Of a stretch of 58,288 nucleotides of DNA, positions 49,153-50,348 are shown piece by piece; within the stretch, counting starts at the first letter, position 1, and each line of letters opens with the position of its first letter. Under the pieces are notes generated by a model, which was given only the letters and a program-made list of their open reading frames with translations, had not been told where the DNA came from and did not search any database. The stretch is from a virus. The position numbers were made by a program, and so were the translations under genes. The stretch covers positions 1 to 58,288 of IMG/VR virus record IMGVR_UViG_3300045988_054519; one strand, written 5' to 3'.

Positions 49153-49884
49153 TCAATATTTAATGTTCATATTTCCGTGTTCATTTACCCAATCAATGGC
49201 TTCTGCATATGTCACGCCATTGTTTTTCAGAAGATACAACAAATTATGGAATTTAGGGTGTGTTTCTTTCAGCCTTAAAAACCTGCTTTCTTTTTCCAAA
49301 TGACATCCGAACCCACATAATACGCAACCAGTTCTTTGGCAACCTGTGGTTTTTAGCAATGGCCTTTCATTATCAAAAATGCCATAATCAGCAAACGACA
49401 TCTGATTTTCACATTGTCCCATAGCTTCATAATCTGTGACTACTTCGCCATAAACAGAACAAATAGGCAGATTGTTTTCTTTAATGTATAAAAGTACATC
49501 CTGTTCCGTCCAAAAACTCATAGGGTTACTTGTTGGAATTTTTAAGTCAAATCCATTACAACCATTTTGTAACCATTGTGAAGTCCTTAATTTACTTTCA
49601 CTAGCCATTTGAGCGGTAATAGGTACTCTGCCTGTATCTTTGTCGTATTGGTGCATAGGCTGTTTCTTCATTACCTTACAACATTGATTAGATACTTCAA
49701 ATGGTGCATTTAGCATAAATAAGTACTTTGACCTGTCATACATACTGCCAAAATCTTCACACTTGACACCGAATAGCTGTTTTACTCTGATAGGTGCTTT
49801 CAGGATTTCACTAGGGATATTCCCCATCTTTAAATCCACAAAAGTTTTGTTTTCCTTGTCTATTCTCCTGTCTATTCCCGTCAA
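49153..49884 (-). CDS. PAPS-reductase/DndC-like protein, C-terminal fragment (out of frame with the N-terminal fragment)
   Basis: Continues the family after the repeat. This frame is open upstream through the repeat (..DRQTEIPFAYRIADLTGIDRR..). Cys cluster CQRTGCVLCGFGCH. Confidence 0.65.
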   Translation of the reverse strand: MTGIDRRIDKENKTFVDLKMGNIPSEILKAPIRVKQLFGVKCEDFGSMYDRSKYLFMLNAPFEVSNQCCKVMKKQPMHQYDKDTGRVPITAQMASESKLRTSQWLQNGCNGFDLKIPTSNPMSFWTEQDVLLYIKENNLPICSVYGEVVTDYEAMGQCENQMSFADYGIFDNERPLLKTTGCQRTGCVLCGFGCHLEKESRFLRLKETHPKFHNLLYLLKNNGVTYAEAIDWVNEHGNMNIKY

Positions 49885-49889
49885 GTCGG

Positions 49890-50348
49890 CTATGCGATAA
49901 GCAAATGGAATTTCTGTCTGTCTGTCTGTCTGTCTGTCTGTCTGTCTGTCTGTCTGTCTGTAAGGATTCTAATATATTTTCTAGCATCTGCAACAGTTTC
50001 TGATATTTCCTTTGAAAACATCGGAAATCCATATTTTTCGCAAACTTCTGCAAATGAAATTTTAGGTTTCAAAATCACAAGGTTATCAAAAGTCTGTGCA
50101 AATTCCTTTAACTCTGGATATTGTGTCGGCACATCTACAAATACAAAAGGAATATTTTTATATCCGCAAACTTCTCTGATTATATGTCCTAAAACTGTAC
50201 TATCCTTGCCAGCACTAAATGACAGATACACACCATCTTCGCCAAACGCGTCTACCCATTCTTTGACACGATAAGCCGTCATTTGAACTTTTGCGCATAA
50301 CGGTAGCGATTGCATTTGTATCAGATCCGAAATATTATGTTTCTTCAT
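49890..50348 (-). CDS. PAPS-reductase/PP-loop protein, N-terminal fragment ending just after the microsatellite
   Basis: PP-loop SFSAGKDS. Reads through the repeat as TDRQTDRQ... and stops 9 codons later (QKFHLLIA*). Confidence 0.7.
   Translation of the reverse strand: MKKHNISDLIQMQSLPLCAKVQMTAYRVKEWVDAFGEDGVYLSFSAGKDSTVLGHIIREVCGYKNIPFVFVDVPTQYPELKEFAQTFDNLVILKPKISFAEVCEKYGFPMFSKEISETVADARKYIRILTDRQTDRQTDRQTDRQKFHLLIA
49913..49960. repeat. (TCTG)12 tetranucleotide microsatellite (CAGA on the coding strand)
   Basis: 12 perfect units counted. Open in all three minus-strand frames (always DRQT-type peptide). Confidence 0.95.

Follow-up and report, generated by a model that had tools for sequence, protein, structure and literature searches.

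Simple sequence repeat (SSR) contingency loci are a textbook bet-hedging device of bacterial pathogens, and the tetranucleotide loci of Haemophilus influenzae and Neisseria include lic1 with (CAAT)n, lgtC with (GACA)n and the mod phasevarions with (AGCC)n or (AGTC)n. Here we describe a tract of the same type inside a gene with the phosphoadenosine phosphosulfate (PAPS) reductase fold, carried by the 58,288-nt viral sequence IMGVR_UViG_3300045988_054519 of IMG/VR (the whole of which is referred to as the window), which derives from a temperate tailed phage. The contingency loci described for T2 and T4 are homopolymers of at least 6 bp, found in T-even and other coliphages, and their rates have been measured (Gomez, Barrick and Waters, bioRxiv 10.1101/2025.10.21.683753); the same study reports that the T2 DNA-modification gene agt is toggled to escape the modification-dependent TgvAB and back again under McrA/BC, while tetranucleotides, methyltransferases and PAPS reductases do not come up in it. 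Campylobacter phages, as summarized where that work is cited, carry hypermutable polyG tracts in receptor-binding genes (Sorensen et al., Cell Rep 2021, pmid 34107245; cited in PMC12823448). Within the literature searched, phage contingency loci had previously been reported as homopolymers only, and long-unit SSR switches in phage genes were not described there, which is an absence from that literature and not proof.

Tandem Repeats Finder (TRF) reported a period-4 array of 12.2 copies with 100% matches (49913-49961), and a regular-expression search returned exactly (TCTG)12 at 49913-49960, in agreement with the perfect 48-nt tract that an earlier note had read from the letters of the window. 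This is the sole long microsatellite in the 58-kb window, which contains just one further tetranucleotide run, (AGTA)4 (43923-43938); by our own estimate, perfect tetranucleotide runs of at least 16 nt are expected by chance roughly 0.004 times per 58 kb. On the coding strand the tract encodes TDRQ repeats and is free of stops in all three frames, which was also how the note had described it (as DRQT repeats). The gene is laid out as follows.

49153-50348, minus strand: whole PAPS-reductase-fold gene, split by the tract
49890..50348, minus strand: N-terminal open reading frame (ORF) of 152 aa from an ATG start, stop included, carrying the PP-loop half (ORF translation)
50199..50222, minus strand: PP-loop ATP-pyrophosphatase motif SFSAGKDS (translation)
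49913..49960, minus strand: perfect tract (TCTG)12, which is (ACAG)12 on the coding strand and encodes (TDRQ)n; 12 units correspond to OFF (TRF, regular expression)
49153..49968, minus strand: C-terminal frame, open through the tract, with the rest of the PAPS_reduct domain; the ORF is called at 49153..49884 from a TTG
49801..49911, minus strand: subfamily-specific insertion IPFAYRIADLTGIDRR ... GNIPSEIL, directly after the tract; mostly missing in distant homologues and of low AlphaFold2 (AF2) confidence
49663..49686, minus strand: Cys-Cys pair QCCKVMKK, putative iron-sulfur (Fe-S) ligands, invariant in 76/76 aligned sequences
49300..49347, minus strand: Cys cluster TGCQRTGCVLCGFGCH with an invariant CxxC (alignment of family members)

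The tract interrupts one gene, because the Pfam domain PAPS_reduct (E=1.7e-17, two stretches) and phrog_424 (one stretch, residues 11-369) both span the junction and because Clostridium, Ruminococcus and Enterobacter phages encode their homologues (~40% identity) in one ORF each. The arrangement proposed in the earlier note, a gene of roughly 400 aa with the PP-loop upstream of the tract, the cysteine cluster downstream of it and a C-terminal frame that runs open through the repeat (from 49968 to its stop at 49153), was recovered in each of these parts; one detail was corrected, in that the N-terminal frame of the 12-unit allele continues for 7 sense codons (KFHLLIA) past the tract, not 9, before it stops. 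Alleles rebuilt in silico with n = 7, 10, 13 or 16 gave proteins of 391-403 aa, and every other n rebuilt gave a truncation. The 12-unit allele yields 152 aa (OFF), and a gain of one unit or a loss of two fused the halves into 395-399 aa, just as had been foreseen.

The tract is very probably a slipped-strand contingency switch. In the mechanism that we propose, replication slippage would add or remove whole 4-nt units of (ACAG)n, and each change in unit number would shift the PP-loop half in or out of frame with the Fe-S half. A phage population would then always be a mixture of ON (n = 1 mod 3) and OFF genomes, of which the window would represent the OFF phase (n = 12), one gained or two lost units away from the restored enzyme. 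The enzyme would be useful in some hosts and costly in others, and the switch would hedge between both. We consider this explanation likely when taken as a whole, switch and hedging together; the purpose of the switch is something that we infer.

The locus resembles those of Haemophilus and Neisseria in its long perfect 4-nt repeats within an ORF, in the apparent ON/OFF slippage by whole units and in its copy-number polymorphism among near-identical genomes. The resemblance extends to several loci per genome, to DNA methyltransferases as targets and to the units themselves (GACA is ACAG rotated, and AGCC is also shared). Whereas those loci are chromosomal, belong to Gram-negative mucosal pathogens and include a Type III N6 methylase, the present ones lie in a temperate phage of gut Lachnospiraceae, are known by sequence comparison and affect a PAPS-reductase-fold enzyme and a C5 methylase. 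With the T2/T4 loci the phage shares an SSR frameshift in a phage ORF as a putative means of reversible bet-hedging; unlike the homopolymers of those lytic phages, the tracts here are 16-83 nt long, consist of 4-, 5-, 7- or 8-nt units, occur family-wide with turnover of the unit and are supported by comparative evidence. The Campylobacter phage tracts, to the extent that the citing paper summarizes them, are likewise phage-borne SSRs that create phenotypic subpopulations, but they are homopolymeric G runs in receptor-binding genes that act on host range, whereas here long-unit repeats lie in enzyme and modification genes. What appears to be new is the occurrence of the classical long-tetranucleotide type of switch in a phage; the mechanism itself is a known one.

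Variation of the tract among related phages

A search of a large protein collection gave 120 full-length proteins of 380-434 aa that are closely related (68-90% identity). Most of them have TDRQT or TDRQTDRQT at the tract position, and some have TASQPASQPASQ or NERTNERTNE. At the nucleotide level, ~74 of 80 related viral contigs carry a tract of 14-83 nt at the same codon, with ACAG as the usual unit, AACG in five contigs and AGCC in one. By state, 43 of the 80 loci are ON and 27 are OFF, and 10 contigs are broken at the tract. The window clade was gathered by a flank-anchored pattern scan of viral and metagenome collections, using 19-20 nt anchors identical on both sides. Its unit counts were 4, 5, 6, 7, 8, 9, 10, 11, 12, 13, 14 and 17, with ON alleles only at 4, 7, 10 and 13. 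The earlier note had suggested comparing related phages and had named 12 units in every relative as an outcome that would speak against a switch; counts from 4 to 14, and 17, were found instead. Tracts of at least 5 units in this clade comprised 5 ON and 11 OFF alleles, or ~1/3 ON, which is as expected if mutation, and not selection, sets the instantaneous state. Overall, ~40% of alleles are OFF, a share that rises to about two thirds where tracts are long.

Copy number differed between genomes that were otherwise almost the same. L009 and L064 could be aligned over 6,765 nt without a mismatch; their one gap was an 8-nt difference in the tract that converts ON to OFF. The 2-kb flanks of L004 and L052 are identical and their tracts measure 52 and 44 nt, L022 and L074 share 99.8% identity with tracts of 16 and 48 nt, and the near-identical genomes L016 and L021 differ likewise. 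The exact 152-aa, 12-unit allele of the window was independently assembled in five samples.

Apart from the tract, the OFF alleles are intact, with both halves complete to the normal stop in 27/27 OFF relatives and no second lesion. Ratios of nonsynonymous to synonymous substitution (dN/dS, Nei-Gojobori) were 0.11 for ON-ON, 0.15 for OFF-ON and 0.14 for OFF-OFF pairs, with close OFF-OFF pairs at 0.008-0.2. Purifying selection is thus equal in OFF and ON alleles, which indicates that OFF lineages mostly expressed the protein in their past and that switching is fast and reversible on an evolutionary scale. On this comparative evidence the locus combines a frameshifting unit whose length is not a multiple of 3, copy-number polymorphism, coexisting ON and OFF alleles and intact OFF alleles, as expected of a contingency locus, and the slipped-strand switch in a phage gene that the earlier note put forward is supported by near-identical genomes of different copy number, by the coexistence of both phases, by the intactness of the OFF alleles and by purifying selection.

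The site is retained well beyond the window clade, and perfect long tracts persist across clades down to ~60% protein identity. The homologue P0123 (~50% identity) encodes DRQTDRQ at the homologous position; because this occurs at only ~50% identity, we regard the tract, as judged from the sequences, as old or recurrent. Three unrelated 4-nt units and a derived 8-nt unit have been found at one codon position, which points to selection on the mutability of this site besides that on the protein itself. The comparison thus supports hypermutability, the coexistence of both phases, the intactness of OFF alleles, purifying selection, conservation of the site across clades and replacement of the unit. 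In L050, L051, L110 (36 nt) and L122 (44 nt), all of them seen OFF, a point mutation in each second unit has produced an octanucleotide, (ACAGACAA)n, which itself varies by one 8-nt unit between contigs (36 vs 44 nt). Tracts are interrupted or degenerate in some lineages (L050, L059, L075) and are lacking in others (L027, L029, L042, L044). A 'Clostridium sp.' clade (P0055/P0111) has TEKKKDGKS at the tract position, which could hide an A-rich homopolymer.

Four of the 10 contigs that end at the tract stop in exactly 55 nt of pure repeat, the signature of an assembler k-mer. Three of four low-coverage ENA contigs with the identical 12-unit allele (L097, L099 and L100) end within ~35 nt past the tract, a further indication that assemblers stall there, possibly through length heterogeneity among the reads. 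Such contig breaks would be an indirect sign of frequent switching within a population. The IMG/VR contig L069 begins (positions 1-15) with the Illumina adapter GTGCTCTTCCGATCT fused directly to an (AACG) tract, which is an assembly artefact.

Identity and genomic setting of the enzyme

PF01507 (PAPS_reduct) is the sole Pfam domain of the protein (64.5 bits, cut-off 22.5), and the phrog_424 match had E=5.8e-36. The best Foldseek neighbours were the PAPS and adenosine phosphosulfate (APS) reductases 2oq2, 2goy and 2o8v (target TM 0.52-0.60, 12-15% identity); fold searches of PDB and BFVD returned the generic PAPS-reductase fold and nothing more specific, and a sequence search of PDB gave no significant match. 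The PP-loop motif SxS[GA]GKDS is present in 60/76 aligned family members, in which the CC and CxxC pairs are invariant and the cysteine of GCN is near-invariant. The CC...CxxC arrangement corresponds to that of the Fe-S ligands in APS reductases. In an AF2 model of the 7-unit relative P0002 (predicted local distance difference test score, pLDDT, 86; pTM 0.82), only residues 132-142 fall below pLDDT 50. The tract peptide lies in this segment, on the N-terminal border of an insertion of ~45 aa that is modelled with low confidence and missing in most distant homologues. The tract is therefore predicted to encode a disordered loop, and its position at the edge of a subfamily-specific insertion would explain why in-frame changes in length are tolerated. 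The switch gene is a member of phrog_424 ('PAPS reductase/cysH'), within which its subfamily is marked by the ~45-aa insertion with the repeat tract at its edge.

The label 'DndC/IbrA-like', under which the gene had first been described, holds at the level of the superfamily only; the defining features of DndC/SspD/BrxP and of IbrA, and also those of CysH, were tested and are not found in it. No NCBIfam model of DndC was among the matches at E <= 0.01, and PADLOC gave weak matches to BrxP (26.4 bits, residues 38-84) and SspD (21.5 bits, residues 42-91) that cover the PP-loop alone. IbrA is defined as a PAPS reductase with DUF3440 that is paired with the ParB-like IbrB; this identity was rejected, as DUF3440 is absent from the Pfam result and no ParB-family gene lies in the surrounding 18 kb. 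All four known phosphorothioation systems require an NTPase partner of the DndD/SspC/BrxC type (PMC12914056). No such partner was detected by Pfam among the neighbouring genes, and the sole SMC-like ATPase (54475-56403) matches LmuB, Old and PtuA-type models, not DndD, SspC or BrxC. With matches at the PP-loop level only and the NTPase partner missing from the neighbours, identity with DndC, SspD or BrxP was rejected as well. The enzyme resembles these proteins in its PP-loop, its PAPS-reductase fold, its conserved cysteines and a link to phage-host conflict (PMC12914056); unlike them, it has no significant full-length match to the group and no NTPase partner, and it is phage-encoded and solitary.

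A different function, that of a CysH-like PAPS/APS reductase acting as a sulfur-assimilation auxiliary metabolic gene (AMG), with the switch tuning metabolic cost, is unlikely. The PAPS_reduct domain, the closest structural neighbours and the invariant cysteines resembling APS-reductase ligands are what such an enzyme would have, and phage homologues are routinely named cysH AMGs in the literature. However, the curated cysH and APS-reductase models score only 26-32 bits against cut-offs of 154-235 (PRK02090, 32.4 vs 154; TIGR00434, 26.2 vs 165; TIGR02055, 26.1 vs 235), which led us to reject identity with CysH. The catalytic C-terminal motif ECG[LIV]H of CysH occurs in 0/76 aligned family members, identity to the solved enzymes is only 12-15%, and the surrounding early region holds no further sulfur-pathway gene. 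Contingency switches, moreover, typify conflict genes over core metabolism. The papers found on phage PAPS-reductase homologues and their function give sulfur (cysH) AMG interpretations without experiment, and one of those that adopt this reading calls the presence of the gene puzzling.

We tentatively propose that the enzyme modifies nucleic acid or otherwise engages host defence, a DNA-modification or counter-defence role that we consider possible because of the early-region context, the switch itself, the methylase repeats in the same phage family and the precedent of T2 agt. Two points count against this proposal: the enzyme has neither a significant match to DndC, IbrA or CysH models nor a ParB or NTPase partner, and the literature offers just the experiment-free sulfur-AMG reading of its phage homologues. 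The genes next to the switch gene that bear on the early-region context are the following.

50358..50798, minus strand: gene for single-stranded DNA-binding protein (SSB), directly upstream of the switch gene, in the early replication/recombination module
50352..50359, minus strand: Shine-Dalgarno-like AAGGAGAG, 5' of the ATG of the switch gene (read off the sequence)
47784..48026, minus strand: Lar-like restriction-alleviation gene, a counter-defence context in the early region of the switch gene

The switch gene and the SSB gene probably form one operon, because the gap between them is only 9 nt. The early region around the switch gene also holds YopX and the C5 methylase. A metallo-beta-lactamase (MBL)-fold protein at 51412-52143 has a weak match to the Anti-Pycsar Apyc1 Pfam family; with this Apyc1-like gene and the Lar-like gene nearby, the surroundings of the switch gene are therefore rich in counter-defence candidates.

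Terminase, portal, major head, tape measure and tail genes were identified in the window, together with a serine integrase, a DnaD-like loader, RecT and an SbcC/LmuB-like ATPase, and nearly all genes, that of the PAPS-reductase fold included, lie on the minus strand. A stretch of 18.3 kb is 100% identical to a human-associated metagenome scaffold in ENA, no cultured or deposited phage matched 25 kb of the window by megablast, and a distant DNA search with the locus matched only SSB genes. The host of the phage family was placed in Lachnospiraceae/Blautia, no finer, from three loci of a contig scan, all of them in metagenome-assembled genomes. A 27-bp tandem array, with its unit rotated, is common to both window ends (11-199 and 58005-58288); its minus-strand translation is a series of 9-aa repeats, (D/Y/S)YGASSATG, within an ORF that spans the junction. 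The window contig is probably a circularly closed genome that was cut inside this coding minisatellite, the copy number of which the assembly left unresolved.

Repeats in the C5 methylase gene

A second gene of the same phage family carries repeats of this kind, at the following positions.

43923..43938, minus strand: (AGTA)4 on the plus strand, (TTAC)4 as coding sequence, directly 5' of the motif IV codons (FPCTDLS); variable in relatives
43389..44237, minus strand: C5 DNA methylase remnant, split between ORFs 44237..43821 and 43808..43389; the (TTAC) tract sets it OFF, and an internal segment is deleted
L005 1803-1837, L012 6403-6458, L040 6470-6529 and L006 1-80, with loci L123-L200: examples of a third repeat, located in the methylase gene of relatives

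In the window, (TTAC)4 throws motif IV (FPCTDLS...TRSGLLWEVERIL) out of frame, and 2, 5 or 8 units would place it in frame. A pattern scan found (TTAC)n in 96 viral contigs, with 4 units in 36, 5 in 50, 6 in 4 and 7 in 2. A given flank allows one in-frame count only, by which 68/83 scorable alleles are ON and 15/83 are OFF through a change of -1, +1 or +2 units. The third repeat is present in 54/82 loci, ~450-465 nt downstream of methylase motif IV, and consists of (AGAGC)3-14 in 47 loci, (ACAG)4-18 in nine, and (AACG)12 and (AGAGAGC)10 in single cases. The position of this repeat is constant across loci with different units, and contigs end there too. Units at the methylase sites are 4, 5 or 7 nt long, in no case a multiple of 3. 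Almost no further SSRs occur across 763 kb of related loci, so the repeats are concentrated in the PAPS-reductase-fold and methylase genes. The methylase of relatives has several segments resembling target recognition domains (TRDs) in different frames; our account is limited to the two SSR sites.

The window methylase (~43815-43860) passes from '...LTEIRD' directly to '...RLEMNMQG...', and motifs VI-VIII and the TRD segments of L012 (5590-7215) are missing. In an intact relative, a 12-nt direct repeat, cagagattagag, lies at the position of the deletion junction, and the segment was likely lost by microhomology recombination between the 12-nt repeats. Judged from these changes, the methylase of the window phage is a relic. 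In L012 (3398-3412 and 6389-6403), the (ACAG) tract of the methylase and that of the PAPS-reductase-fold gene of its clade have the same 14-nt left flank, acaacacaatctta, with the peptide NTIL-TDRQ, and unrelated right flanks. This suggests that the repeat and one flank were copied between the two genes.

A broader interpretation, to which we give an even chance, is that a large family of 55-60 kb temperate phages in human-gut Lachnospiraceae keeps a multi-locus 'phasome', in which 4-, 5-, 7- and 8-nt repeats would be maintained by selection at fixed codons of at least 2 enzyme genes (one site in the PAPS-reductase-fold gene, two in the C5 methylase), the unit being replaced repeatedly and the site kept. 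Bursts and lysogen populations would then consist of ON/OFF combinations of nucleic-acid-modifying enzymes, a phage counterpart of phasevarions, and the widespread phage 'PAPS reductase' would be a conflict gene with a part in DNA modification or counter-defence.

Alternatives to a switch and meaning for the phage family

The locus is quite unlikely to be a neutral microsatellite whose gene is dispensable and on its way to loss, with the OFF alleles as pseudogenes and length changes of no adaptive value. ON alleles do not exceed 1/3 in the long tracts of the window clade, the tract is interrupted, degenerate or lacking in the lineages named above, and the neighbouring methylase of the window has truly decayed, all of which would fit such a loss. 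In contrast, neither half of any OFF allele has a second lesion, OFF-OFF dN/dS (0.14) is like that of ON-ON pairs, perfect long tracts have been kept to ~60% protein identity, and three different units at one codon position are not predicted by neutral decay.

If the selected trait were instead the in-frame length of a flexible linker that tunes the enzyme or an interaction with a partner, the out-of-frame alleles would be inevitable by-products. The tract does encode a predicted disordered loop beside a lineage-specific insertion, and ON alleles with 4, 7, 10 and 13 units exist, but a tri- or hexanucleotide would vary the linker without any frameshift, and the three independent unit replacements are nevertheless all 4-mers. 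The absence of multiples of 3 at the methylase sites and the proportion of OFF alleles (~40% overall, about two thirds among long tracts) also make this explanation very unlikely.

Incomplete silencing of the OFF alleles, with ribosomal frameshifting or transcriptional slippage on the repeat giving some full-length protein, is highly improbable. The tract is free of stops, and so is the downstream frame from shortly before it onwards, so that a shift anywhere in the 48 nt would suffice; however, no slippery heptamer or stimulatory structure was identified, to our knowledge transcriptional slippage requires homopolymer runs, and rescue of this kind leaves the varying length of the tract unexplained. 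That the tract is in reality in frame and was mis-sized from short reads is scarcely conceivable, despite the ten related contigs that break there (four of them in one 55-nt k-mer) and the three low-coverage contigs with the window allele that stop just past it, because the 152-aa product was assembled independently in five samples and the window tract (49 nt including a partial unit) is shorter than the k-mers at the breaks, while lengths of 4-14 units were all recovered with clean flanks from different assemblies and Illumina stutter is small for 4-nt units.

Several observations weigh against the contingency switch that we favour. The comparative evidence consists throughout of consensus assemblies, not reads, and many loci come from a single IMG/VR compilation (3300045988), which makes their independence uncertain. 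The ON share of long tracts does not exceed 1/3 and thus gives no direct indication that the ON phase is favoured at a given moment. The recurrence of the same 12-unit allele in five assemblies indicates, moreover, that the tract is not unstable enough for every sample to differ.

The earlier note was right to place a switch in a PAPS-reductase-family gene, and it missed both the family-wide reach of the phenomenon and the second gene, with its methylase repeats. Switches of the long-tetranucleotide type appear to occur in an abundant, uncultured family of gut temperate phages, at three sites in two enzyme genes, and the evidence across clades indicates that the mutable site is itself conserved. 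Consensus assemblies of gut phages would hide the ON/OFF heterogeneity, and they systematically break or are mis-annotated where these genes lie, as split ORFs and contig ends. Selection on a gene marked by a hypermutable switch is fluctuating and antagonistic, which argues against the routine sulfur-AMG label for the phage 'PAPS reductase'. The natural ON and OFF alleles make the real role of the enzyme directly testable, and a prophage whose methylase or modifier switches could provide its bacterial host with a phasevarion.

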